Below, piece after piece: positions 48,566-62,273 of a stretch of DNA of 64,000 nucleotides. The position numbers were made by a program, and so were the translations under genes. Origin of the DNA: Clostridiales bacterium (GTDB taxonomy: Bacteria > Bacillota > Dehalobacteriia > UBA4068); NCBI GenBank assembly GCA_040767605.1, contig JAXGOI010000001.1:824213-888212 (forward strand), written 5' to 3'. A model generated the notes under the pieces. The model was given only the letters and a program-made list of their open reading frames with translations, did no database searches and was not told the DNA's origin. Position 1 is the first letter of the stretch. Each line of letters starts with the position of its first letter.

Positions 48566-49864
48566 CTAGGCCTGCGCCCTGCCGCACCAGCGGACAATGG
48601 CATTGGTTAAAATTTTAATAGAAAGTATAAGCTGCTCAACTAAAATATACTCATTATTGCCATGGGCGTTTTGATCTATGGAGCCCGGCCCAAAGGCTAT
48701 AGCGGGAATACCCTGTTTATACAGGAAGCTGGCATCATTTACGGCGCTAAAACCCGAAAAAAGGGCGGGTTTTTGAGTTATTTCCTCATAGGCGCCGGCC
48801 AACGCCCGGCAAGCCGGGTGTTCCGGCTCGGTAATATACCCCGGCCAATCATAAAATATTTTAAATTCCGGGGGGTTGGCCTTAAGCCAATCATCCCGCT
48901 GAACCACCGAGTCTATTACATCCCGCACCTCCGCCTCCGCCTCGCTAAAGGGTACCCAGGGAGCATAGGAAAAGCAGCCCTGAACTTGCGCATGGCCGGG
49001 GACGGCTACAATATAATCTCCGGAACGGATTATGGCGGGGACAATGCAAAAAAGCCCCACCCCGCTTTTATCCTTGCCGGGGTAGCCTCCGCCGCCTAAA
49101 ACCCTGTCCCGCCAGCGAAAATTCCACTGAGTCTCTAAATCTTCAAGGGCATCAAGAATTTTTAAGGCTTTTTTAAAGGCATCCACCCCGATATCGCTTC
49201 CGGTTTTTATTCCGAAGGCCTGTGGGTATTTTATTTTATTGGCCTGCGCATTATGTACGGTTTTACCTTTTACATTTAATTCCCAGGCAACAGCCCCCGG
49301 GGATTTTGTATGAAGCTCGCAATCCGTAGGCTCCAGCACAATGGCAAAATCTCCCCGGTGGCCCCTCTTTACTGTTGCGGTGGTTCCTAATATATGCTCG
49401 CAGCGCTCCTCCCCCACAACAGATTCTAAGATTAAATCCCCCATTAGGGGAATATTATTTTCTTTTAAAGCCAGGGCGGCAAAATACATAGCCGTAAGCC
49501 CGCCCTTCATATCTGTTGCCCCTCTTCCGTAAATGGCCCCGTTTCTCAATTGGCCCTGCCAGGGGTCACTTTCCCATAGCTTTAAATCCTCGGGGCTTAC
49601 AGGCACAACATCACAATGGCCGTTAAGAATCAGGCTGGGGGCATTGCCTTTGCCTTTTACGGTGCATACTACATTCGGGCGCAGCTTATCTTTATCCTCC
49701 GCCCAAAAATCCACCCGGCCTAAAGCGGCCTCCTCGCATTTATTCCGAAACCATTCCTGAAAAGGCAGCTCCGCCCCGGTAACAGATTTTTGAGAAATAC
49801 CGTCGCAGCAAAAATTAATTATCTCCCGGCGGTTATCTTCAATCCATTTATATACCTTTTTCAT
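48566..49864 (-). CDS. M20A ArgE/DapE-family deacylase (YlmB-like)
   Basis: LILNGHCDVVP, GRGATDMKGG, GEE, FGPG..AHGNNE; ATG 49864 after GAGGAG. Confidence 0.88.
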   Translation of the reverse strand: MKKVYKWIEDNRREIINFCCDGISQKSVTGAELPFQEWFRNKCEEAALGRVDFWAEDKDKLRPNVVCTVKGKGNAPSLILNGHCDVVPVSPEDLKLWESDPWQGQLRNGAIYGRGATDMKGGLTAMYFAALALKENNIPLMGDLILESVVGEERCEHILGTTATVKRGHRGDFAIVLEPTDCELHTKSPGAVAWELNVKGKTVHNAQANKIKYPQAFGIKTGSDIGVDAFKKALKILDALEDLETQWNFRWRDRVLGGGGYPGKDKSGVGLFCIVPAIIRSGDYIVAVPGHAQVQGCFSYAPWVPFSEAEAEVRDVIDSVVQRDDWLKANPPEFKIFYDWPGYITEPEHPACRALAGAYEEITQKPALFSGFSAVNDASFLYKQGIPAIAFGPGSIDQNAHGNNEYILVEQLILSIKILTNAIVRWCGRAQA

Positions 49865-50004
49865 ATTCGCACTCCTCAAACCCCATAAGGGGCCCTCCTA
49901 AAGCGGCCAGGCCATAGGCAAAAGCCTGTGCATTAAACCTCTTTAAAGAAAGCCCCTTTTAGTTAGTGACGCTAATTAAAATATGCTTTAAATACTCTTA
50001 TAAC

Positions 50005-51171
50005 TTATTTTTTTACGGAAGAAATTGTGCCTTTTACAAACCAATCAATTTTATTATACACATCATCTTTACTGAGGTATTTGCCTTCTTCGCATTTAAG
50101 ATTGCCGTCGTTATCGTATATGGGCCCTTTGTAAACAATGGAGTACATATCGTCTGCGGCAAGCAGTTCAGCATAAACCTCTTCAAATTTATCTCTTACA
50201 TCCTGAGGAACATTTTTGGTGTATTCCTGGGGAATAGCAGCTTCGGTTTCCAAACCGGGGGAGTACATGGTAGGTACAAAGGTGCCGTCATAAATTCTCT
50301 GGAAGGTATCAATATAATATACTTCCCAGTTAAGGAATTCTCCGCCTAAGTAGCTATCCGGGCCAAAATCACGCTGGTCGGCATACTGGCTCATGGCATA
50401 AAGCCCTTTTTCCTGAGCTACCTGAACATGGGAAGGGGTATCGGTATTATTCCAGAGAACATCGCAGCCTGCCTCGGCCAGGCTGTAAGAAGCATCTGTT
50501 TCCGCTGCCGGATCATAGAATGTACCGATATAGATAACAGTCTGGGTAACATCGGGGTTAACGGACTGAGCCCCTAAGAGGAAGGAGTTCTGGCAAACTA
50601 ATACCAGGGGAATAGGATTGGAGCCGACAAAACCAATTTTATTGGTTTTAGTCATCATGCCTGCCATAACACCGTACATATACCAAAGAGAGGTTCTGTC
50701 CGGCCAGAAGGATTCAATATTAGAAGAAGAAATGGAGCCGGAGCAAAGCAAGAACATAGTATCGGGGTAATTGGGGGCAATTTTTTCAACATCAGACTGA
50801 TAAGCTGCGGTTGCAGCAACTACTACATCATATTTATCCTCGCCTAATTGAGTAAAAACCTGTTCTGCAGCTGTACCGGGGGTAACAGGCTCAATGTAAG
50901 TGGTGTCGATAATATCATTAAGGGTTTGCTGAGCCGTTTTACGGGCGGTTTCGTGGCGGTCGCACCAGCCGTCATCACCAACTGCGCCATTATAAACAAA
51001 AGCAATTTTTAATTTTTCTTTACCTGCGCCGCTATTGTCATTATCCCCGGGGTCCTGTGTATCCCCGGTGCTTGCATTTCCGCCGCAGGCGGCGAGGAAC
51101 AACGCTGAAGCAAGAAGCAGTACCACTAATAATCCCAACAGGGGGTAGGCGCCCTTTTTAGCTATCTTCAT
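50005..51171 (-). CDS. BMP-family ABC substrate-binding lipoprotein
   Basis: Lipobox LAAC; AFVY.G.VGDDGW; AGMMTKTNKIGFV. Confidence 0.9.
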   Translation of the reverse strand: MKIAKKGAYPLLGLLVVLLLASALFLAACGGNASTGDTQDPGDNDNSGAGKEKLKIAFVYNGAVGDDGWCDRHETARKTAQQTLNDIIDTTYIEPVTPGTAAEQVFTQLGEDKYDVVVAATAAYQSDVEKIAPNYPDTMFLLCSGSISSSNIESFWPDRTSLWYMYGVMAGMMTKTNKIGFVGSNPIPLVLVCQNSFLLGAQSVNPDVTQTVIYIGTFYDPAAETDASYSLAEAGCDVLWNNTDTPSHVQVAQEKGLYAMSQYADQRDFGPDSYLGGEFLNWEVYYIDTFQRIYDGTFVPTMYSPGLETEAAIPQEYTKNVPQDVRDKFEEVYAELLAADDMYSIVYKGPIYDNDGNLKCEEGKYLSKDDVYNKIDWFVKGTISSVKK

Positions 51172-51218
51172 TATATCAGCCTCTTTTCTTTTTTTTTATA
51201 TAAACGGGGTAAAGGAAC

Positions 51219-52193
51219 TTATTTACCCTCGCGTATATACGGTACTCCTAGGGTTCGGGGAGCAACATTAACTTTGCGCTTATTTAACCAGCTAACTAAT
51301 ACTAAAATAATAATGGGCAGAAGATAGGGTATCATACGGAGGAAATAAGGGGGTATGCCGACACCTAAAGTTTCCAGGCGAAGGCCTAAAGAGTGGAATA
51401 TCCCAAAGATATATGCCCCCGCTACTGCGTTTAAGGGGTTCCAAAGGGAGAAATTCACCAGGGCAATGGCCAGCCAGCCGCGGCCGGCAGTCATACCCTC
51501 AACCCAGGAAAGGCTGTAGCCAAGGGATAAATACGCGCCCCCCATGCCGGCAAAAACGCTGCCTATAATTACGGCAATCATACGGATGCGGTAAATATTA
51601 ATCCCGGCGCTATCCACAGCCCCCGGCTGGTCGCCGGTGGCCCTAAGATAAAGGCCGTATTTGGTGCGGTAGATAAAAAACCAGGCTGCCACAGCCAGCA
51701 GAAGGGCAATAATAACCATTTCGTCCTGCTGCAGGAAGAGCTGTAATAACGGCATATCATTTAAAGCCTCCAGCTTAAAGGATTTAAAGGCATCCGGCGG
51801 AACCTTGCCTAAATAGGGCTTACCCAAAAGGCTGGAAAGGCCTATGCAAAAAATTATAAAGGCAATACCCGTGGCCACCTGATTGGCCCTAAGCTTAACC
51901 AGGAGAAATGCCAATAAAGCTCCAAGTATGGCGCAGAAAACCATAGCCCCTAAAAGACCCAGCCAGCGGTTACCGGTCATATTGGTAAACATGAAACCGC
52001 TCATGGCGCCCATTAGCATCATACCCTCAACACCAATATTCATAACGCCGGATTTTTGCGTGATAATTTCTCCGATGGCTGCGAAGAGTATGGGCGTACC
52101 GGCGGTAATACCGGCGGATAAAACATAGACAATGAATCTTAAATCAATCTCCCCCACCTTGTTTTCCCTCCTCTTTTTTAGCTTTTTTACCAA
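51219..52193 (-). CDS. Nucleoside-type ABC transporter permease
   Basis: GVMNIGVEGMMLMGA, MTAGRGWLAIA; true start probably the GTG near 52157. Confidence 0.9.
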   Translation of the reverse strand: MVKKLKKRRENKVGEIDLRFIVYVLSAGITAGTPILFAAIGEIITQKSGVMNIGVEGMMLMGAMSGFMFTNMTGNRWLGLLGAMVFCAILGALLAFLLVKLRANQVATGIAFIIFCIGLSSLLGKPYLGKVPPDAFKSFKLEALNDMPLLQLFLQQDEMVIIALLLAVAAWFFIYRTKYGLYLRATGDQPGAVDSAGINIYRIRMIAVIIGSVFAGMGGAYLSLGYSLSWVEGMTAGRGWLAIALVNFSLWNPLNAVAGAYIFGIFHSLGLRLETLGVGIPPYFLRMIPYLLPIIILVLVSWLNKRKVNVAPRTLGVPYIREGK

Positions 52194-53376
52194 GGGGCGT
52201 AAATAAATCCTTTATCATCCAGATCAGCCCCGTATTAGGGGCATCATCATCTAGGAAATCCGCCTCCTGGGCATCGTCATCATCCTTGGTTCCCTTGGGC
52301 ACCCAGGAAATCTTATAGAAAGTGAAGATTTCCCCCGCCAGAATGAAGAAAAGAATCAGGCCTTTAATAATTTGCACAATGGAGCTTTGAAAGCCCGCCA
52401 TTTGTAATTTAAAGCCCACAACCGTAAAGCCCGCGAATAAATAGCTTACAACCAGCACCACAAGGGGATTAAGACGGGAAACCCAGGCAATTACAAAGCC
52501 CGATAAACCATAATCCGAAGCAAGCTGCGGCCGGATACGATGGGAAACCCCGCATACCTCCAGAAAACCGGCCATCCCGGCTAAGCATCCGCTGACAAAC
52601 ATGGCAATAAAGAAAATCTTTTTAATATTAATCCCGGAATAGCGGGCGCTGGGGGTAGATAACCCCACGGCCCTCATTTCATAGCCGAAAACAGAGTTCC
52701 TCAATAAAAACCACACCGCAATAATGGCCAGTATTCCTATAACAAAGCCCCAGTGTAGCCTCCCGGCATTGGGTATTCGGGGTATAACGGAATTTGCAAA
52801 TATGGTAATGCTCTGGGGGGAAGTTGAAGTTGTATCCCGCCAGGCCAAATTAGAGAGATAGCCGATCCAATATCCGGCAACGCTGTTTAAAAGCACCGTT
52901 GTCAGGATTTCATTAATCCCAAAATAAATCCGGGGCAAAACAGATACATAACAGTAGAGGCCGGCTGCCGCCATAGAAGCAATAAAAATTATAGGGATCA
53001 TAATAAACCAGGGAAGATTAGGAAAGGCTATGCCAAGACCAGCCGCCACAGAAGCGCCTACCAAAAACTGACCCTCTACCCCAACATTCCAAAGCCCGGC
53101 CTTTGCCGCCACCACCACAGCCATAGCACAGAGGGAGAAAGAACTTACATATACTAAGAGGCTAAGAATACCGCCTTTTGTAAAATAGGTTTCTTTAAAG
53201 GTTTTTAAAATAATATTTAGGGCATCGTACCCGGCAATTTGTAAAACCAGAATACTCACCAGCAAAGAGAGAAAAACTGCCGCAACGGAAACCAGAATTA
53301 CGGATAAGGAATTTGCGGTTCGCCTTCTTTCAATTTTAAGCAATTTCGCCCCCTCCTTCCCCTTGGGCCCCGGCAT
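52144..53376 (-). CDS. Nucleoside-type ABC transporter permease
   Basis: WNVGVEGQ, NEILTTVLLN, GYEMRAVG; true start probably the TTG near 53343. Confidence 0.9.
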   Translation of the reverse strand: MPGPKGKEGAKLLKIERRRTANSLSVILVSVAAVFLSLLVSILVLQIAGYDALNIILKTFKETYFTKGGILSLLVYVSSFSLCAMAVVVAAKAGLWNVGVEGQFLVGASVAAGLGIAFPNLPWFIMIPIIFIASMAAAGLYCYVSVLPRIYFGINEILTTVLLNSVAGYWIGYLSNLAWRDTTSTSPQSITIFANSVIPRIPNAGRLHWGFVIGILAIIAVWFLLRNSVFGYEMRAVGLSTPSARYSGINIKKIFFIAMFVSGCLAGMAGFLEVCGVSHRIRPQLASDYGLSGFVIAWVSRLNPLVVLVVSYLFAGFTVVGFKLQMAGFQSSIVQIIKGLILFFILAGEIFTFYKISWVPKGTKDDDDAQEADFLDDDAPNTGLIWMIKDLFTPLGKKAKKEEGKQGGGD

Positions 53377-54892
53377 CGGCCAGACCCATCATGGCATAAC
53401 CCAGGGCATCTAATGTCCATTGATCATTGGCTTTCTTCTGAGTAAGGCTGCCTTTATACATAACGGCAATTTGATCCGAAACCTCAAAAAGCTCGTCTAA
53501 ATCTTCCGAAATTAGAAGTATGGCATAGCCCTTTTTCTGCTGCTCCAGTAAAAGGTCATGGACTCTCTCTACGGCGGAAACATCCAGGCCGTAGGTGGGG
53601 TGCACCGCCACAATAACTTTTGGGTTCTCATTTATTTCCCGGGCAAAAATCAGCTTTTGAATATTGCCGCCGGATAAAAACCGAATTGGCAGATAAGGGG
53701 TGGCCATTCTGACATCAAATTCCCGCATCAGCCGGTTACCAAAGCTTACCACCTCTTTTTGGTCTATCATTCCCCCCTTGCGCACAGGCGCCCGGTCATA
53801 AGATTTTGAAATAATATTTTCATAACAGGTAAAATCGGCAACGCATCCTACCCCTATTCTGTCTTCCGGTACATGGCTTACCCCCGCGTTTATAAAATCC
53901 TGGGGGTTTTTATTGGTTAATTCCTGCTTATCTACATAAATAGCGCCGCAGGTAACCTGGTGCAGGCCCGTAAGGCATTCCGCCAGCTGAGATTGGCCGT
54001 TACCGGATACCCCCGCAATACCCAATATCTCGCCGGAGGCCACCTCCAGGGAGACATTATCTAAAAGCAATTGTCTTTTTTCCCCCACGGCGGAAATATT
54101 ATCCACTTTAAGCATGGCATCGCCTTTGCCGTTGGAGAGGGTTTTTTTCCGGGTAGAGGCCCTCATTTCGCGGCCTACCATCATATGGGCCAGCTCATGG
54201 GCATTGGTATCTTCCTTATTCATGGTTTTGATAACCTCGCCCCGGCGCAAAATTGTAACTCTGTCGGCAATCTGAATAACCTCATTTAGCTTATGGCTGA
54301 TAAAGATTACTGTTTTGCCCTGCTCCTTCATTTGCATAAGGTTTTTAAACAGCTCCTGGCTTTCCTGAGGGGTTAAAACCGAGGTTGGCTCGTCCAAAAT
54401 CAGAAGATCAACATCCCGGTAAAGCATTTTTACAATTTCCACCCTTTGCATTTCACCCGCGGAAAGCTTAGAAACTATTGCCTCGGGCTGAATAGGCAAA
54501 TTAAATTTCTCCGTAACATCCATAAGCTTTTTATATAGCTTGCGCTTGCGGATGATTCTGCCCAAATCCTCATGGCCCATAAGTATATTCTCCGCAACGG
54601 AAAGGGTTTCCACAAGTTTAAAGTGCTGGTGTACCATGCCGATACCCAGGCAGCAGGCATATCTGGGGTTTTTAATATACTCCTCCTTGCCGTTAAAAAG
54701 TATCTTGCCTTCATCCGGTATATACAGCCCTATTAAAATATTCATTAAAGTGGATTTCCCTGCCCCGTTTTCCCCCAATAGGGCATGAATTTCGCCCCGT
54801 TTGATTTTAAGGTTGATGTCTTTATTAGCCGCAACCTTGTTAAAGCGCTTGGTTACATGCTGTAACTCTAAAATATATTCCGTGTTGGCCAA
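53336..54892 (-). CDS. ABC transporter ATP-binding protein (two NBDs, CUT2 type)
   Basis: GENGAGKST, LILDEPT, LSGGNIQK. Confidence 0.95.
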   Translation of the reverse strand: MANTEYILELQHVTKRFNKVAANKDINLKIKRGEIHALLGENGAGKSTLMNILIGLYIPDEGKILFNGKEEYIKNPRYACCLGIGMVHQHFKLVETLSVAENILMGHEDLGRIIRKRKLYKKLMDVTEKFNLPIQPEAIVSKLSAGEMQRVEIVKMLYRDVDLLILDEPTSVLTPQESQELFKNLMQMKEQGKTVIFISHKLNEVIQIADRVTILRRGEVIKTMNKEDTNAHELAHMMVGREMRASTRKKTLSNGKGDAMLKVDNISAVGEKRQLLLDNVSLEVASGEILGIAGVSGNGQSQLAECLTGLHQVTCGAIYVDKQELTNKNPQDFINAGVSHVPEDRIGVGCVADFTCYENIISKSYDRAPVRKGGMIDQKEVVSFGNRLMREFDVRMATPYLPIRFLSGGNIQKLIFAREINENPKVIVAVHPTYGLDVSAVERVHDLLLEQQKKGYAILLISEDLDELFEVSDQIAVMYKGSLTQKKANDQWTLDALGYAMMGLADAGAQGEGGGEIA

Positions 54893-54948: not shown

Positions 54949-56031
54949 TTAATTGGCTCCTCCCATAGCATCGGCAGCGATTATAGCGTTTAGAATTTCC
55001 CCGGCGGTAATATTATTACCCTCATGATGCAAATAAGGGTCATTATAAGCGGCTATTGCCACATCATGCAGTTTTTCCCGGCTAATGCCTTCCAGATGCA
55101 ATTCCTCAAAAGTAGTGGGTAAACCCACTTGTTTATAAAAATCATAAAGCTCAGCCAATTCCCCCGGGGGGGCATCCGTAAGATGCAGCTCGGCTAAAAT
55201 CCCGAAGGCTACGATTTCCCCATGGAGACAGCTATGAATTTCAGGCAGTATAGTCAGCCCATTATGTATGGCATGAGCCGCTGCCAGTCCGCTGCCTTCA
55301 AAAGCGATACCGGCGGCTAAAAGGTTAATTTCTATTATCCGCTCAACAGCGGGGGTAACGGCCTTTTTCTCATAAGCGAGCTTTGCGGCAAGGCCGTATT
55401 CTAATATGCTCTTATAACAGTATTCACTAAGGGCCAAAGCGCAAAAGGTCTGCCTGGCGGAGAGGGAATTTTGGGCCCCGGTTTTTTGGCAGGCCCTGCC
55501 TTCAAAATAAGTTGCCAGAGCATCCCCCATACCGGCCACAAAATAGCGCACCCCGGAACCGATAATAATTTCATTATCCACCAGTAAAACATCGGGGCTG
55601 TGCTTTTCATAATATACGGATTCGGCAATACCCTCGGGGGTATAAATAACGGAGCAAGCGCTGAAAGCGGCGCTGCTTGCCGCTACACTGGGAACCATTA
55701 TTACCCTTAAATCCAGCTTGTCCCCGATAACTTTAGCGGTATCCACCACTTTACCGCCGCCTAGGCCGACAATTACCGTATAACCCCCCTGGGAAACCTC
55801 CTCAATAAGGCGGTTAATCTCCTGCCAGCAGCAATGAGCGGAAAAGGCTCTGACGGTATAAAGATTCTTCCAGCCCCGGGCTTCGGCTAAAGAAATCATA
55901 GACGGGGTAACCAGTAAAAAAGCCTTACCGCCATAAAGGTCAATAAGCCCGGGTAACTCCCCTATGGCATTATTACCCTGAATATACTTTCCCGTAAAGT
56001 ATGATTTTCTTAAGTCCATTGCATTTGCCAC
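54949..56031 (-). CDS. Glycerol-dehydrogenase (GldA)-family oxidoreductase, divergent paralog
   Basis: GLGGGK, AGMGDALATYFE, AAAHAIHNGLT, HGEIVAFG; GTG 56031 after GGGAGG; ASTDAP replaced by AASSAA. Confidence 0.85.
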   Translation of the reverse strand: MANAMDLRKSYFTGKYIQGNNAIGELPGLIDLYGGKAFLLVTPSMISLAEARGWKNLYTVRAFSAHCCWQEINRLIEEVSQGGYTVIVGLGGGKVVDTAKVIGDKLDLRVIMVPSVAASSAAFSACSVIYTPEGIAESVYYEKHSPDVLLVDNEIIIGSGVRYFVAGMGDALATYFEGRACQKTGAQNSLSARQTFCALALSEYCYKSILEYGLAAKLAYEKKAVTPAVERIIEINLLAAGIAFEGSGLAAAHAIHNGLTILPEIHSCLHGEIVAFGILAELHLTDAPPGELAELYDFYKQVGLPTTFEELHLEGISREKLHDVAIAAYNDPYLHHEGNNITAGEILNAIIAADAMGGAN

Positions 56032-56429
56032 AGCAGTGCCTCCCGTGCTTATTAAATTATCCTGAGTAAAAACTGCTGCCTTAAACCCCCTCATCATATA
56101 TGCACGGATAAAGGGAATATTCCGGCGCCCGTGTTCAGTACAAGTGTACTTAAAGCGACAGTTTTATTTTACATGAATTATAATGCCTAATGCTATAATT
56201 GTCAAGGGCTCCTGAACCTTAAAATGCACTACAACTCCTTCTTTTCTATTGGAAATTTATTCTAAAGCCCTGCAAAAGGGCTGCAAAAAAACTTTTTATT
56301 GTAGCTTTGCTTTAAACATTTAAAAAATTTCCAGCACTAATAGTTATTTATACTGGACAAACTTATCCCCTGCATGATACAATATTTCCATAATAATTAT
56401 CACTTAAATCATTAAAAGGGGGTAAACCA

Positions 56430-57533
56430 ATGGCCATAGTTATACAATCACCATGGAAATATGTTCAAGGACCGCATGTATTTGAAAACCTTGGGGAATA
56501 TGCCCGTACCTATGGGGATAATTACCTGATTTTAACCAGTAAAACTCCGCTGAAATTCTTTAAAGAGAAAATAGAAAAAAGCTTTCAGGAATGTAATATT
56601 AAAGGAACCTTTGAGGTTTTTAACGGTCAATGCACTCTTAAAGAAATTGCCAGAGTTGAAGAGCTGGTAAAAGAGAACGGCTATAATGCCATAATCGGCT
56701 TGGGAGGCGGCAAGGTATTGGATGTTTCCCGCTGCGTAGCGGGGAATTTAAAGCTCCCCTTAGTTATTGCTCCCACTATTGCCTCAACAGACGCACCCAC
56801 CAGCTCGGATTCCGTAGTTTATAATGAAGACGGCACGGTGGCCTTTGCTCCCGTATATCCTCATAATCCTCATCTGGTAATTGTAGACAGCCATGTTATA
56901 GCAAATGCCCCTGTTCGTATGCTGGTAGCCGGCATGGGAGATGCTCTGGCAACTTATTTTGAGGCCAGGGTTTGCGCCGAAATGAATTCCCCCAGCACAT
57001 TGGGGCACGGTCTTTCCGTAGCTGCTCTGGCTTTGGCAAGAGCCTGTTATGATACCCTTATGGAGCATGGTTATAAAGCTAAAATTGCCAATGCCAATAA
57101 AAAAGTAACCCCCTCTTTAGAGAAAATTATTGAAGCCAATACCTATCTCAGCGGCATTGGTTTTGAAAGCGGCGGCCTTTCCTTATGCCATGCCATGCAT
57201 GACGCTTTAACCGCTATTCCCGAATGCCATAAATTCCTCCATGGGGAAAAGGTAGCCTTTGGGGCTGTAACCATGCTGGTAATGGAAAACCGCCCCCAGG
57301 AGGAAATCGAAAAAACTCTTGCCTTCTGCGCCAGTGTTGGGCTCCCTATTACCCTGGCCCAGCTGGATATAACAGAAAATGTGGAGGAAAAACTCCGCAA
57401 GGTTATACACATAGCCGTACCCAAAGACCATGCCCTTTATCGTATTCCCCCCGGCATAACTGAAGATGCGGCGGTTGGGGCGGTTTTAGTAACAGACCAA
57501 TTAGGCAGGGACTTTTTAGCAAAGCAAAAATAA
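56430..57533 (+). CDS. Glycerol-dehydrogenase (GldA)-family oxidoreductase
   Basis: SPWKYVQG, IASTDAP, AGMGDALATYFEA, GFESGGL..HAMH, HGEKVAFG. Confidence 0.9.
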   Translation: MAIVIQSPWKYVQGPHVFENLGEYARTYGDNYLILTSKTPLKFFKEKIEKSFQECNIKGTFEVFNGQCTLKEIARVEELVKENGYNAIIGLGGGKVLDVSRCVAGNLKLPLVIAPTIASTDAPTSSDSVVYNEDGTVAFAPVYPHNPHLVIVDSHVIANAPVRMLVAGMGDALATYFEARVCAEMNSPSTLGHGLSVAALALARACYDTLMEHGYKAKIANANKKVTPSLEKIIEANTYLSGIGFESGGLSLCHAMHDALTAIPECHKFLHGEKVAFGAVTMLVMENRPQEEIEKTLAFCASVGLPITLAQLDITENVEEKLRKVIHIAVPKDHALYRIPPGITEDAAVGAVLVTDQLGRDFLAKQK

Positions 57534-57812: not shown

Positions 57813-57845
57813 GAAACCCCGCGCGGCTATGCCGCGCGGGGTTTC
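57813..57845. terminator. Strong GC hairpin downstream of the HisB-like gene
   Basis: GAAACCCCGCGCGGC-tat-GCCGCGCGGGGTTTC. Confidence 0.75.
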
Positions 57846-57867: not shown

Positions 57868-58530
57868 TTATACAAGGGAGGCGTCGGCGATGCCTTCCTC
57901 GCCATAATACGGATTATGGCTGGCTTTACGCCAGGGGTTGGCTTCATAAGCCATACGCAGAGCTTCACCCACAGCGTGGAAAGCGGATTCCCAAGCATGG
58001 TGAGCATCTCTGGATTTTAAGAAATCTAAATGCAGGGTTGCAGGGAAGCCCTGGAAGAAACCTTCCATAAAGCCTTCCATATCAGCAAATTGCATATCTT
58101 CAACCATTTCAATTCTTCTTACTTTATCGGTATAGGTAATAAAGACATTCCGGCGGCCTTCCATGCTCACCATTGCGCTGGCCAGGGATTCATCCAGGCC
58201 GAATAAGGCAAAACCGTTAATGTTCATGCCCTCATTATTGAGCTTGGTATAGAAGAGCTTTTTCAAGGCGGCGCCTAAGGTTATGGCAACGTCTTCGGCA
58301 ATGGTATGAGTGGAACGCCATTTGCCGCACTCAACTTTACAGCCAATGGACATGCAAAGACCCCAGGAAAAGGTGTCAAGCATATGATCCAGGAAATGAA
58401 TGGTTGTATCCGGGCGCAATTCCGGCCGGTAATCTGTAGTTACCTCTATGGTAATATCAATTTCTTGGGTCTTCTTTTGGAGCTTAACATAAGTAGGGGT
58501 CTCTTTATGCAAAGTAAATAAATGTGCCAT
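57868..58530 (-). CDS. Divergent imidazoleglycerol-phosphate dehydratase (HisB/IGPD)-fold protein
   Basis: FLDHML, HTIAEDVAITLG, LDESL, GR, HHAWE; lacks PSTKG; not in a his operon. Confidence 0.8.
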   Translation of the reverse strand: MAHLFTLHKETPTYVKLQKKTQEIDITIEVTTDYRPELRPDTTIHFLDHMLDTFSWGLCMSIGCKVECGKWRSTHTIAEDVAITLGAALKKLFYTKLNNEGMNINGFALFGLDESLASAMVSMEGRRNVFITYTDKVRRIEMVEDMQFADMEGFMEGFFQGFPATLHLDFLKSRDAHHAWESAFHAVGEALRMAYEANPWRKASHNPYYGEEGIADASLV

Positions 58531-58896
58531 TTTGCATCGTCCTTTCTTTTTTAATTTTTAATCATATGGCGCGAGGGATAACTATACCTGTGCAACCATC
58601 TAATTTAACAAGAATATAACACCAATATAGTCTTTTGTCAAGTATCTTTATACAAAAAAACGATATTCCGCCACTTTTATTAATCTTTTATTTCCGACAT
58701 AAATCTGTTATCTTTGGGGTATGCCAGTTTTACTGGTGTTACGGTACAAAAAGACAAAATTTTTTATTTGGCGAGGCTTAAAATATGCTTAACCTAGTTG
58801 GACATTAAATTTTTTAGCTTTTGCAATATATACTGGACATAATCAGGAAAATAGATTAAAATATATTTTAAGATAATTTCTAAGGAGGAGCATTTA

Positions 58897-59499
58897 ATGG
58901 TTGATGTTGGGAAGAGACTTACTGAGTTAAGAAAGGGAAAAAATCTATCCATGGCTGCGCTTGCTAAAATTGTTGGGGTTTCCAGAAGCTTAATCAGCCA
59001 GGTGGAAAAAAACGATGCCTACCCCTCCTTACAAACATTAAGTAAAATTGTGGAGGCTCTGGGCACATCCATGAGCGAATTTTTCCGCGTTGAGCCTAAT
59101 GCCAAAAATGAAAATGCTTTAATTGTACGCTCCGATGCCCGGGATGTAATCTATATGCAGGATTCAGAAATGAAATATTATATTCTTTCCCCCAGCGCCT
59201 ACCGGGATATGGAGTTTTTAATTTCCGAATTCCCCCCTTATAGGGAAGGCGCCGCCATTGATTATTTCCGTCATGAGGGCCATGAGTATTTCTATGTGCT
59301 TAAGGGCCAGCTCCAGCTTACCCTGGGGGATGAAACATATTTGCTGAATGAAGGAGACAGCGGCGGCTTTGATGCAGGGCAAACTCATTATTTTGTAAAT
59401 AAAACCAATGAAATTGCCAGGCTGATTGTGGCGGCCACCGAGCCCTGCGTACAAATAAACCCGGAGAAAATCTCCGGCCCGGGGGAAATACAGGTATAA
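58897..59499 (+). CDS. XRE-HTH + cupin transcriptional regulator
   Basis: LAKIVGVSRSLISQVE..YPSL; HEGHE..YVLKG; EGDS..F...H. Confidence 0.92.
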   Translation: MVDVGKRLTELRKGKNLSMAALAKIVGVSRSLISQVEKNDAYPSLQTLSKIVEALGTSMSEFFRVEPNAKNENALIVRSDARDVIYMQDSEMKYYILSPSAYRDMEFLISEFPPYREGAAIDYFRHEGHEYFYVLKGQLQLTLGDETYLLNEGDSGGFDAGQTHYFVNKTNEIARLIVAATEPCVQINPEKISGPGEIQV

Positions 59500-59818: not shown

Positions 59819-61006
59819 TCAGGCTTTGGCAATAGTTTTGCCAAATTCAACCGCCGCTTTTTTAGAATCCTCATCCGGATTCCACAATGTTTTATAACCC
59901 TCGCCAATAACTTTAAAGCCTGCATCCGCCATTAATTCATTAATTAATTTAACAGATTCTCCGCTCCAGCCATAGCAGCCGAAGCCGGCGGCTTTTTTAT
60001 TTTTAAATTTAAGGGATTTTAAATAGCAAATTAAGCCGCCCACCGAGTGTAAAATATTATTCCCCATAGTTGGCGAGCCCACTACCACGGTTTTAGATTT
60101 AAAAATTTCTGTTACAATATCATTTATATCTTTTTTAGCCAAGCTAAAGGTTTTTACAACAACCTCTTTATCCTCTTGAATAATACCCTCCGCTATTCTT
60201 TCGGCCAGCTCTTTTGTGCCGTTCCACATAGTATCATAAACAATTGTAATTTGATTTTCCTGATAATCATTGGCCCATTGGGCATATTTTTCAACTATTT
60301 GCATGGGGTTATCCCGCCAGATAACACCATGGCTGGTTGCAATAATATCTATGGGCAAATTCAGGGCAATTACCTCATCCAGCTTTTTCCGGAGAATAGC
60401 GCTGAAAGGCGTCAGGATATTCGCATAATATTTAATACATTCCTCAAATAAATTGCACTGGTCTACCTGATCGTTAAAAAGCTTTTCATTGGCATAATGC
60501 TGCCCGAAGGCGTCATTGCTGAATAAAATATTATCCCCAGTTAAATATGTTGCCATGCTGTCCGGCCAGTGGAGCATTTTCATTTCCACAAAAACCAGGC
60601 TCTTGCCATTGCCGATATCCAGGGAATCCCCGGTTTTAACTACTTTAAAATTCCAGTCTTTATGGTATTGCCCCTTTAAGGATTTTACCGCGCTTTCCGT
60701 ACAATATATAGGTGTATCCGGAATATGTTTCATTAATTCGGGGAGGGCGCCGCTATGGTCTACCTCGCCATGGTTTGCGATAATATAATCGATTTTATTT
60801 AAATCAATTTCTTTGGCTAGATTATTAACAAACTCCTCTGCAAAGGGCATCCAAACCGTATCAATTAAGACGGTTTTTTCCTCCTCAACTAAATAAGAAT
60901 TATAGGTTGAGCCTTTATGAGTGGAAAATTCATCGCCGTGAAATTTCTGCAAATCCCAATCCACTTTACCAACCCAGCAAACATTATTTTTAACTCTCTT
61001 TTTCAT
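59819..61006 (-). CDS. fprA: Flavodiiron protein (FprA, O2/NO reductase)
   Basis: GSTYNSYL, NHGEVDH, LHWPD, NDAFG, YDTMWNGT, YGWSGE. Confidence 0.95.
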   Translation of the reverse strand: MKKRVKNNVCWVGKVDWDLQKFHGDEFSTHKGSTYNSYLVEEEKTVLIDTVWMPFAEEFVNNLAKEIDLNKIDYIIANHGEVDHSGALPELMKHIPDTPIYCTESAVKSLKGQYHKDWNFKVVKTGDSLDIGNGKSLVFVEMKMLHWPDSMATYLTGDNILFSNDAFGQHYANEKLFNDQVDQCNLFEECIKYYANILTPFSAILRKKLDEVIALNLPIDIIATSHGVIWRDNPMQIVEKYAQWANDYQENQITIVYDTMWNGTKELAERIAEGIIQEDKEVVVKTFSLAKKDINDIVTEIFKSKTVVVGSPTMGNNILHSVGGLICYLKSLKFKNKKAAGFGCYGWSGESVKLINELMADAGFKVIGEGYKTLWNPDEDSKKAAVEFGKTIAKA

Positions 61007-61412: not shown

Positions 61413-62273
61413 GTGCTTCCGGTTAAAAAACTATATACAATCGGCCAGGTATCACAAATTACAGGCATTAGCAGCAGAATGCTGCGGTATTACGAAAAAA
61501 AGGAAATACTTATGCCGGCGGAGAGAAGCCCGGAAAACAATTACCGCCTTTATACGGAAAAACAATTAGAAGAATTGCTGCTATTTAAGGAGCTTAACCG
61601 GGTAGGGTTTTCAATGGAGAACCTTATAAATATTTTTGAAGACCGTGATTTAAGCTCTTTGCAAAAAGAACTGGAAAATAAAATCCAGCTTGCAAATAAA
61701 GAAATTCTCGATGCAATCCGTAATTATGTCCATATAAATGAACTCCATTTTAGGGTGCTAAAATCCCTAAACATTTTGCAAAGCAAAAATACTATTGCAT
61801 CTAATTCGGTTATTAATTTAATTGATATGCCCGATCAAGAAGTAGTTTTTATCCGCTATTATGGTCTATTTAACAGCAGAGAAATATTTATGGAAAAGGT
61901 TGGGGAATTATATCGCTTAATAAAAAAATATAATCTGTTTACCTTAGGCCCCCTATTTGTTATCTTTCATGATCAATACCTTACATCATTCAATATGGTA
62001 AAGGGAGATGTGGAAATTTGTGTACCTCTGGAAAACACGGATACAAAATGCCCTAATATCAGAACCCTTAAGGCTTTCAGGGCCATTTCACATCTGCTTG
62101 TGGGTCCATATTCGCAGCTTGAAACCACATATAAAGCGCTGGAACTCTGGGGCAGGGAACATAATTTTAAGCTGTCGGGCTCTTCTCTTGAAGAATATGT
62201 AGTAAACCCCACAATGACTTCCGTAGATAATAATTATGCAACCCAAATATATTTGCCAATAATAAAGGATTAA
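61413..62273 (+). CDS. MerR-family regulator with GyrI-like effector domain (BmrR type)
   Basis: YTIGQVS...MLRYYE..NNYRLY; C-terminal GPYSQL, EEY. Confidence 0.9.
   Translation: MLPVKKLYTIGQVSQITGISSRMLRYYEKKEILMPAERSPENNYRLYTEKQLEELLLFKELNRVGFSMENLINIFEDRDLSSLQKELENKIQLANKEILDAIRNYVHINELHFRVLKSLNILQSKNTIASNSVINLIDMPDQEVVFIRYYGLFNSREIFMEKVGELYRLIKKYNLFTLGPLFVIFHDQYLTSFNMVKGDVEICVPLENTDTKCPNIRTLKAFRAISHLLVGPYSQLETTYKALELWGREHNFKLSGSSLEEYVVNPTMTSVDNNYATQIYLPIIKD

Follow-up and report, generated by a model that had tools for sequence, protein, structure and literature searches.

What does a protein with the fold of a histidine-biosynthetic enzyme do in a bacterium that appears unable to make histidine? 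The question is raised by a gene in a 64,000-nucleotide stretch of DNA from a Clostridiales bacterium (GenBank assembly GCA_040767605.1, contig JAXGOI010000001.1, positions 824,213 to 888,212), referred to here as the window. The gene lies at 57868..58530 of the window, where an earlier note on this DNA had correctly placed it, and is read from the minus strand as one open reading frame (ORF) of 220 amino acids; the plus-strand frame of the interval is full of stops. It codes for an IGPD-fold paralogue (IGPD, imidazoleglycerol-phosphate dehydratase or HisB) of a subfamily named NPYY here. The function we favour, tentatively and at somewhat less than an even chance, is that of a Mn-dependent dehydratase of a non-phosphorylated, probably imidazole-bearing diol, which would no longer act on imidazoleglycerol phosphate (IGP).

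The family-level result is solid. The window protein matches the Pfam IGPD family (PF00475) with 94.1 bits against a cut-off of 27, over profile positions 1–144 of 144, and falls below all 13 NCBIfam HisB equivalog cut-offs, the best score being 99.6 bits against 231. An AlphaFold2 (AF2) monomer model, calculated from a 108-sequence alignment, has a mean pLDDT of 95.4 (90 and 81 in the two final 10-residue blocks) and a pTM of 0.93. The top 29 Foldseek matches to this model in the Protein Data Bank (PDB) were all IGPDs with a probability of 1.00, VIA-align gave Z scores of 22.7–25.9 to 21 IGPD entries and 6.2 to the next-best fold, and an ESM Atlas look-up with the protein returned IGPD clusters only. 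Arabidopsis thaliana IGPD2, a canonical IGPD (EC 4.2.1.19; PDB 4mu0, 4mu3 and 4mu4), has the same fold, 4mu4 aligning with a VIA Z of 25 and an rmsd of 2.0 Å over 195 residues. Canonical IGPDs share with the window protein the catalytic glutamate pair, seven of the eight Mn ligands and a conserved aspartate, at 23–29% identity. The IGPD assembly is a Mn-dependent 24-mer whose active sites each combine three chains. Unlike canonical hisB, the gene stands outside a his operon, in genomes without hisG or hisI.

In IGPD, following Bisson and colleagues (2015; PMC4509728), one manganese ion (Mn1) is bound by H47, H74, H169 and E173 and the other (Mn2) by H73, E77, H145 and H170, and the catalytic acid/base residues are E21 and E173. 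The substrate phosphate is contacted by Q51, H55, R99 and K177 in the enzyme's open form and, in the closed form, by R121 and by S199 and K201 of the C-terminal loop (C loop), which the same source gives as essential for activity. By alignment, the window protein keeps E23, H49, H75, E79, R126, H167, H177, H178 and E181. The motifs F46-L-D-H49-M-L, L-D113-E114-S and E-G-R126-R127-N are intact, and D113 probably corresponds to D108 of the A. thaliana enzyme, judging from its offset to R121. Elsewhere, S73-T-H75-T76-I-A-E79-D80 replaces the canonical D-x-H-H-x-x-E-D, with one histidine of the pair gone; G101-M-N-I104-N-G106 replaces G-I-(K/R)-R-(F/Y)-G, with isoleucine in the arginine column; and in H177-H178-A-W-E181-S-A-F-H185-A the lysine has become histidine at position 185. 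Apart from the C loop, all of these motifs had been read correctly in the earlier note (STHTIAED, NG and HHAWESAFHA as changed; FxDHML, DE, GR and HHxxE as retained), and its claim of an altered phosphate site with one lost metal ligand is borne out. Seven of the eight Mn ligands are kept, H74 being replaced by T76, and six of the seven phosphate contacts are lost (Q51 to T53, H55 to G57, R99 to I104, K177 to H185, S199 to G210 and K201 to E212), leaving R121 as R126. Which histidine of the pair was lost depends on the alignment: the HMMER alignment to 1rhy makes it the second, as the note had it, and that to the Mycobacterium tuberculosis enzyme is shifted by one. H75 and E79 stand at i,i+4, which favours the loss of H74.

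The C loop, which had been taken to be absent, is present in a remodelled form. Y209-G-E-E212-G213 lies in register opposite the canonical P-S-T-K-G (and the A-G-V-K-G of the type II group described below), with 3 residues inserted before it and a short extension after it. This register was obtained from two independent alignments, one of 133 sequences made globally with MAFFT and one of the tails alone made with L-INS-i. The replacement of the phosphate-binding K201 by E212 reverses the charge in the loop. In 4mu4 and 5el9 (model 11–217 to chain 9–207 for both) and in 6fwh, all of them closed-form structures, the tail of the model is matched by the ordered C loop, and open-form IGPD structures align to the model only to about residue 200. 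The placement of the E211/E212 and R126/R127 side chains is inferred from the alignment only.

The window protein belongs to a distinct clade of such proteins. A word-indexed protein search returned 146 matches at E <= 0.001, the best 120 of which were examined; among these, 104 clusters (P0002–P0105) were 44–82% identical to the window protein at 165–428 bits, and the next match fell to 29% and 66 bits. An exhaustive search of 50%-identity representatives gave 996 matches at E <= 0.001, only seven of them at E <= 1e-30. Eighteen key positions were tabulated over 133 sequences, and a quick IQ-TREE tree with SH-aLRT support and midpoint rooting was calculated for 124 of these, six fragmentary rows having been dropped and identical rows merged. 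Table and tree together resolved three groups, namely canonical IGPD, recognized by the HH pair, R99, K177 and PSTKG, and two groups whose names were coined in this analysis, type II and NPYY, the latter called after its tail motif. The branch that splits canonical IGPD from type II and NPYY has 99% SH-aLRT support. NPYY forms one clade of 27 rows, also with 99% SH-aLRT, nested among type II rows. Its signature, W56-G57, H75-T76, G-R126-R127-N and a tail of the form N-P-W-R/K...N-P-Y/F-Y-x-E/D-E-G, is complete in the window protein. The possibility of a new IGPD subfamily, raised before a phylogeny had been built, is therefore well supported by a distinct clade with a sharp similarity cliff to canonical IGPDs.

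A genome scan matched 39 stretches, 32 of which encode a relative, in 31 loci: 25 of these loci are NPYY (L005–L027, L029 and L030), L034 and L035 contain C-terminal fragments, and L028 and L031–L033 are archaeal type II. In the metagenome scan for close relatives only two short contigs were found, one of which (L060) repeats the arrangement of L022. Judging by record titles, the NPYY loci come from five phyla (Bacillota, Actinomycetota, Coprothermobacterota, Spirochaetota and Thermodesulfobacteriota), and the proteins matched in the word-indexed search are named 'imidazoleglycerol-phosphate dehydratase' or 'hypothetical protein' in their sources. Three sub-types are distinguished by position 185, which is His (as in the window protein), Met or Thr. 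NPYY is under strong purifying selection, with a dN/dS of 0.073 for L009 against L012 and of 0.033 for L008 against L017; between the window gene and L005, pN was 0.10 and pS 0.82 with dS saturated, and L023 against L025 was saturated as well. Some copies have decayed. C-terminal fragments only are found in Ruminococcus callidus and Pectinatus haikarae (L034:8001-8168 and L035:8001-8159), the tail of one NPYY gene is frameshifted and runs into a urocanase gene (L027:8001-10046), and another gene has an internal frameshift (L030:8001-8663); in these cases an assembly error is possible.

The nearest relatives of NPYY are the type II proteins, at 35–45% identity. In type II, H74 is replaced by V, T or L, R99 by G, H55 by R and K177 by R, and the C loop reads AGVKGTL. 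Both groups have W56 and an N-x-W-R-K start to the C loop and lack H74 (V/T/L) and R99 (Gly), but type II keeps arginine at the H55 and K177 positions together with the A-G-V-K-G-T-L loop, where NPYY has G, H/M/T and Y-G-E-E-G. Type II includes genes of archaeal his operons, and NPYY genes never lie in one. In L032 (Thermoplasmata) and L033 (Micrarchaeia) the operon is hisD-IGPD-hisH-hisA-hisF-hisIE, and four archaeal genomes, whose completeness is not given, have no PF00475 match other than the type II gene. The type II genes of the archaeal loci lie at L028:2036-2674, L031:7956-8603, L032:2757-3374 and L033:7974-8612; P0104 is also type II. The losses of H74 and R99 thus predate the NPYY clade and are found in presumably working IGPDs; since they are common to his-operon type II, they are uninformative on a new function. 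If type II enzymes do work, the textbook site can do without one of its Mn1 ligands, which bears on the accepted model of the metal site. Two type II proteins, P0123 (661 aa) and P0127 (651 aa), combine histidinol dehydrogenase at the N terminus with type II IGPD at the C terminus of one polypeptide; no description of such a fusion of the non-consecutive HisD and IGPD steps was found in the literature searched. Double-IGPD proteins (P0149 and P0153) were seen among the distant matches, the window protein being a single copy.

Peculiar to NPYY is that three more positive charges have gone (Arg to G57, Arg to H/M/T185 and Lys to E212) and that R127 has been gained; the column of R99 is variable. 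The column of G57 holds arginine in 16 of 25 type II sequences and histidine in 52 of 66 canonical ones, and that of E212 holds lysine in all 25 type II and in 63 of the 66 canonical sequences. R127 is a new invariant arginine next to the retained R126, and both the R126-R127 pair and the acidic E211-E212 pair are invariant in the clade. Nine positions (K19, G57, S61, R127, P163, N206, P207, Y209 and E212) are at least 90% conserved in NPYY and at most 15% in both other groups. On the catalytic side, each of the three groups conserves E23, H49, H75, E79, D80, D113, R126, H177, H178 and E181 to at least 90%, and the catalytic glutamates E23 and E181 are invariant in the NPYY alignment. The active-site substitutions are conserved across the subfamily and therefore do not reflect chance or decay. 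The phosphate pocket is dismantled in an NPYY-specific manner, with G57, H/M/T185 and E212 in the places of Arg, Arg and Lys in the nearest his-operon relatives.

The genomic setting of NPYY is not that of a housekeeping HisB. The genome that contains the window is a single contig of 1.86 Mb, 96.5% complete, and in it the window gene is the only IGPD-family gene; a canonical hisB, for which the earlier note had proposed to look elsewhere in the genome, does not occur. Neither hisG nor hisI was found in this genome, and therefore IGP cannot be made there. From this gene content the host bacterium is predicted to be a histidine auxotroph. Two HisC-grade genes are present. An intact, orphan hisD (TIGR00069, 486 bits against 243.8) stands outside the window between a MerR-like gene and nrdG/nrdD (G000:C1:1407164-1408393; L036:9141-10415). 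The only HisA/HisF-family gene of the genome (Pfam His_biosynth, 218 bits; G000:C1:251517-252194; L037:8485-9210, minus), likewise outside the window, closes a purine operon, purB-purC-purM-purN-purH-purD, in this genome without hisG and hisI.

An NPYY gene and a canonical IGPD gene (205–223 bits) coexist in four of the six NPYY genomes tested (G001, G003, G004 and G005), the NPYY gene being the only PF00475 match in the other two (G002 and G010). In all five other genomes of the window's sub-type (G010, G002, G051, G052 and G054) hisI was not found; four of these have neither hisI nor hisD, and that of the closest relative, G051, keeps hisD without hisI. A blastp and tblastn search for HisH, HisA, HisF and HisIE homologues in the 31 loci and the window segment found them only in L032 and L033, and none in the 25 NPYY loci or the window; the NPYY gene is accordingly in a his operon in none of the 25 loci, nor in the window. 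Among 40 relatives from the same family or order, an NPYY-level match (62%) occurs only in G020 and G039, 27 have canonical-level matches only (23–33%) and 11 have no match. Same-family relatives carry a canonical-type hisB, and the NPYY gene is therefore not the ancestral copy. As far as gene content and sequence can tell, the NPYY protein is not the housekeeping HisB.

One neighbour has been inherited together with the window gene. The gene at 54949..56097 (minus strand) codes for a 382-residue GldA-family dehydrogenase with the iron alcohol dehydrogenase (Fe-ADH) fold and is the orthologue of a gene found downstream of the IGPD-like gene in five loci; it is called the partner here. It is 61–64% identical to these neighbours in L007, L008, L012, L017 and L022, which start 0–50 bp downstream of the NPYY gene or overlap it by 35 bp. 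It scores 361 bits against a cut-off of 336 for the glycerol dehydrogenase subfamily NF006941, but with 267 against 700 it falls well short of the GldA equivalog cut-off, and it is only 36–37% identical to the more canonical gldA paralogue of the window. The partner thus forms its own group within the GldA family, travelling with NPYY genes. In a reciprocal search of the 40 relatives, the sole orthologue-level match (64%) adjoins the NPYY gene of G039; a second copy in that genome (52%, on another contig) is partial and interrupted by a stop, and the other matches, in six genomes and to the second gldA of the host genome, were at 37–41%.

In other loci the neighbours of the NPYY gene follow the sub-types. 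The ORFs of these loci were taken as the longest non-overlapping ones and clustered by BLAST, the IGPD gene of seven high-GC or antisense-ORF loci being recovered separately; neighbour clusters were named from scanned representatives, their other members by similarity only. The five loci with a GldA-family gene directly downstream (five of 25) are of the His185 sub-type. In the Met185 sub-type, hisD-grade genes (450–520 bits against 243.8) adjoin the NPYY gene in L011, L016, L023, L025 and L026, together with genes for short-chain dehydrogenases (SDR), zinc-dependent alcohol dehydrogenases (Zn-ADH) and binding proteins, and in L025 the genes of the hisD region are preceded by HutI (440.7 against 298), a HutF-like deiminase and an M20 protein resembling ErtE and allantoate amidohydrolase. 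An M20 gene also occurs in L034; the M20 gene of the window was considered as a counterpart of those in L025 and L034 and was rejected, there being no similarity. L016 has HutD, and L014, by clustering, has both HutI and HutD. The Thr185 sub-type comprises Actinomycetota and one Formimonas copy and has aminotransferases, amino-acid permeases and an XdhA-like molybdoenzyme nearby; in L027 urocanase lies directly downstream. In all, HutI, HutD or urocanase is adjacent in four NPYY loci, amino-acid permeases adjoin the NPYY gene in L007, L013 and L019, and class I/II and class III aminotransferases occur in L013 and L024. In L011:1442-4105 and L026:7986-10610, two divergent IGPD paralogues flank the hisD-grade gene, one of NPYY type and the other with N-H-L-L-C-E-D and a G-V-A-G tail; a hetero-oligomer of the two is possible. 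In L018, L029 and L030 an MtmB-family methyltransferase gene and corrinoid-binding and pterin-binding genes flank the NPYY gene, which hints at a methylated amine substrate in these lineages.

The favoured reading follows from what has been kept and what has been rebuilt. Conservation of the glutamate pair, the metal ligands and D113 argues that the ring-proximal chemistry is kept, and the rebuilt lid and pocket, with three cations lost and a Glu-Glu pair in place, argue that the distal group is something other than phosphate, more probably a neutral or cationic one. The enzyme would bind a metal-bridging heterocycle with an adjacent diol, a head group like that of imidazole-glycerol, and would remove water by the same imidazolate/diazafulvene route as IGPD; the far end of the substrate would be neutral or positively charged, with no phosphate. 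The ketone product, or else the substrate, would then be handled by the co-inherited GldA-family NAD-dependent dehydrogenase (54949-56097), and the ABC transporter encoded after the partner gene may import the substrate. Characterized GldA enzymes reduce hydroxyacetone and aminoacetone and act on small neutral diols and hydroxyketones. A GldA-type partner fits a small alpha-hydroxyketone/diol couple, and the hisD and hut neighbours of the other sub-types argue for imidazole compounds at the level of the family. The neofunctionalized dehydratase for a non-phosphorylated substrate put forward in the earlier note thus stands in part. It is supported by the NPYY-specific loss of the pocket and by the evidence that the protein is not HisB, but two of its grounds, the His-to-Thr change and the lost R99, are shared with his-operon type II, a third, the missing loop, falls away, and the new invariant R127 beside R126 means that an anionic group elsewhere on the substrate is possible.

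Several observations weigh against this reading. With R126 kept and R127 new, an anionic group (a carboxylate, a sulfonate or even a phosphate) could be bound. The hisD and hut links come from the Met185 and Thr185 sub-types, none from the His185 sub-type of the window, and within that sub-type nothing ties the module to histidine: four of the five genomes lack hisD, and neither urocanase nor histidine ammonia-lyase was found in the host genome. The neighbours are heterogeneous, with many generic polyol and hydroxy-acid enzymes and regulators, such as a short-chain dehydrogenase resembling KduD and gluconate-5-dehydrogenase, a Zn-ADH resembling threonine and idonate dehydrogenases, a D-2-hydroxyacid dehydrogenase, a LarA homologue, GntR/FCD regulators and CUT2-type sugar ABC transporters, and these fit a non-imidazole hydroxy-acid or polyol equally well. 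The type of transporter seen in the window (Bmp) occurs in no other locus. Finally, an orthologue of the partner is present elsewhere in only one of the five NPYY genomes that lack an adjacent partner (G052, 63%); no partner match was found in G051, the genome of the closest relative (L005), or in G054, both metagenome-assembled genomes of unknown completeness.

A substrate without an imidazole ring, such as a 2,3-dihydroxy acid or a small polyol, is the alternative that survives best, although we consider it unlikely. Its carboxylate or diol would sit on the two metals and R126 and R127 would hold the acid group, and a pathway of sugar acids or polyols would account for the GldA-like, SDR, Zn-ADH and 2-hydroxyacid-dehydrogenase neighbours. 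The generic enzymes and regulators of many NPYY loci, the new invariant R127 and the lack of hisI and hisD in four of the five genomes of the window's sub-type are all consistent with this, as is the formate bound in an IGPD-Mn structure according to the title of entry 4qnj. The residues of the imidazolate/diazafulvene route are nevertheless at least 90% conserved, for which the same reactive head group is the simplest explanation, and hisD-grade genes adjoin in five loci and hut genes in four; moreover, E211 and E212 of the closing loop would repel an acidic tail.

An imidazole diol with a carboxylate or amino-acid tail, of the imidazole-glycerate to imidazole-pyruvate or beta-hydroxy-histidine type, would be a sharper version of the favoured reading, and is improbable. 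Here the carboxylate would be held by R126 and R127 and the ammonium by E211 and E212, and the invariance of both pairs in the clade is as expected. HisD-family enzymes convert primary alcohols to carboxylates, and the hisD-grade genes of five loci, together with the amino-acid permeases and aminotransferases listed above, point in the same direction. The substrates, however, are purely inferred and supplied by no known pathway, and small neutral compounds are what characterized GldA-type enzymes act upon.

That the protein still dehydrates IGP as an alternative HisB, the lost phosphate ligands being made good by R126, R127 and R201/K202, is more doubtful again. The catalytic core is intact, hisD adjoins in five loci, and type II, without H74 and R99, nonetheless lies in archaeal his operons and is the sole IGPD-family gene of its genome there, so that IGPD evidently tolerates large changes. 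Against this, hisI is missing from the host genome and from the five other genomes of its sub-type, the host also lacks hisG, canonical IGPD coexists with NPYY in four of the six genomes tested, and NPYY is never in a his operon. A lysine-to-glutamate change also falls on a phosphate ligand of the C loop, a loop that the structural study showed to be essential for IGPD activity (PMC4509728). The last alternative, a non-catalytic relic of a decaying histidine pathway, is scarcely credible: the host has indeed lost most his genes, keeping the orphan hisD and the HisA/F-like gene, and fragmentary or frameshifted copies occur in L027, L030, L034 and L035, but same-family relatives carry canonical-type hisB, purifying selection is strong, the clade spans five phyla with invariant catalytic residues, and the window gene has its own strong promoter-like site and terminator-like hairpin.

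Other roles were considered and rejected. Histidine salvage (the IGPD-like enzyme, then an aminotransferase, then HisD) is not a general role because four of the five other genomes of the sub-type lack hisD, and catabolism through the Hut pathway in the host was discarded since urocanase and histidine ammonia-lyase were not found in its genome. An organosulfonate substrate was rejected as well: the binding protein scored 157.9 against an SsuA cut-off of 163.5, the HisD neighbours, which resemble HpsN, score as true hisD, and the acidic loop speaks against an anionic tail.

To return to the favoured dehydratase of a non-phosphorylated diol, a broader proposal may be built on it, possible but on the unlikely side: NPYY proteins would be the first IGPD-fold members with a substrate other than IGP and would define a pathway for free imidazole polyols such as imidazole-glycerol. 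Dehydration would give an imidazole-acetol-type ketone, which GldA-like, HisD, SDR or Zn-ADH partners would reduce or oxidize. Wherever hisD and hut genes occur, histidine and the Hut pathway would receive the products; in histidine-auxotrophic anaerobes of gut and digester like the host, the pathway would have a different purpose. No description of an IGPD paralogue with another function, or of the type II clade, was found in the literature searched, nor anything on such a clade in connection with imidazole glycerol or acetol salvage, and the available part of a 2024 network paper on the IGPD family (PMC10978614) describes no such clade. The IGPD family is regarded as having one function only, and every member receives the name 'imidazoleglycerol-phosphate dehydratase' in automatic annotation. 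If the proposal is true, the IGPD fold would have its first example of a new chemistry or substrate, and histidine-prototrophy calls in metabolic reconstructions of gut and digester Bacillota would be corrected, six genomes here having an 'IGPD' but no hisI. The proposal would also point to a metabolite, probably an imidazole compound, exchanged in anaerobic communities, and would offer a natural experiment on the residues needed for imidazolate/diazafulvene dehydration.

Within the window, the promoter, ribosome-binding site and terminator calls are matches to a consensus or a fold only and mark candidate elements. The 220-residue coding sequence at 57868..58530 (minus strand), assigned to the His185 sub-type from its ORF, Pfam, NCBIfam, AF2 and VIA results, is preceded by a putative sigma-70-like promoter at 58613..58641 (minus strand; TTGACA-17 nt-TATATT with TG, 11 of 12 consensus matches), and GAAAGGA, resembling a ribosome-binding site, is read about 10 nt before its ATG. 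A GC-rich hairpin of 15 bp at 57813..57845 (minus strand), 22 nt past the stop and followed by TTTCGCATTTAT, is a likely terminator; the 81-nt stretch downstream of the gene folds with -34.5 kcal/mol, and the hairpin was not listed by the terminator scan because its T tract is interrupted. With such a terminator the gene would be monocistronic, and this is how it looks, divergent from a regulator gene at 58897..59499 (plus strand). That regulator is a PuuR-like XRE-HTH and cupin protein (Pfam HTH_3 and Cupin_2; NCBIfam PuuR 92 bits, below 211), a homologue of which (cluster c27) lies near the NPYY gene in L013, and it may control the IGPD-like gene.

Between the IGPD-like gene and the partner, on the opposite strand, lies the second, more canonical gldA paralogue (56430..57533, plus strand; NF006941, 462 bits), which is 31–38% identical to the partner group and is probably not part of the module. 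A putative sigma-70-like promoter at 56177..56205 (minus strand; 12 of 12 consensus matches) would serve an operon of the partner and the ABC transporter. After the partner, all on the minus strand, come a double ABC ATPase (53336-54892), two BPD_transp_2 permeases (52144-53376 and 51219-52193) and a Bmp/PnrA-like binding protein (50005-51171), each assigned with Pfam, and an ArgE/DapE-family deacylase (48566-49879; NCBIfam TIGR01910, 228.9 against 217.6). These genes (48566..54892) are a possible uptake system for the substrate, linked to the IGPD-like gene via the partner gene only.

A shared operator of the IGPD-like and partner promoters was looked for and rejected, the only shared 11-mer being marginal and lying in promoters on the plus strand, those of the regulator and of the other gldA. 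This 11-mer, TATACTGGACA, occurs at 58829-58839 and 56349-56359, in each case overlapping the -35 box of a plus-strand promoter-like site, first that of the XRE-cupin regulator gene and then that of the second gldA; about 0.06 chance matches are expected by a rough estimate, and TATACTGGACA is a possible shared operator of these two genes. Beyond the regulator, a flavodiiron-type protein with ODP/metallo-beta-lactamase and flavodoxin domains is encoded at 59819-61006 (minus strand) and a MerR and GyrI-like regulator at 61413-62273 (plus strand), both ordinary and probably unrelated.

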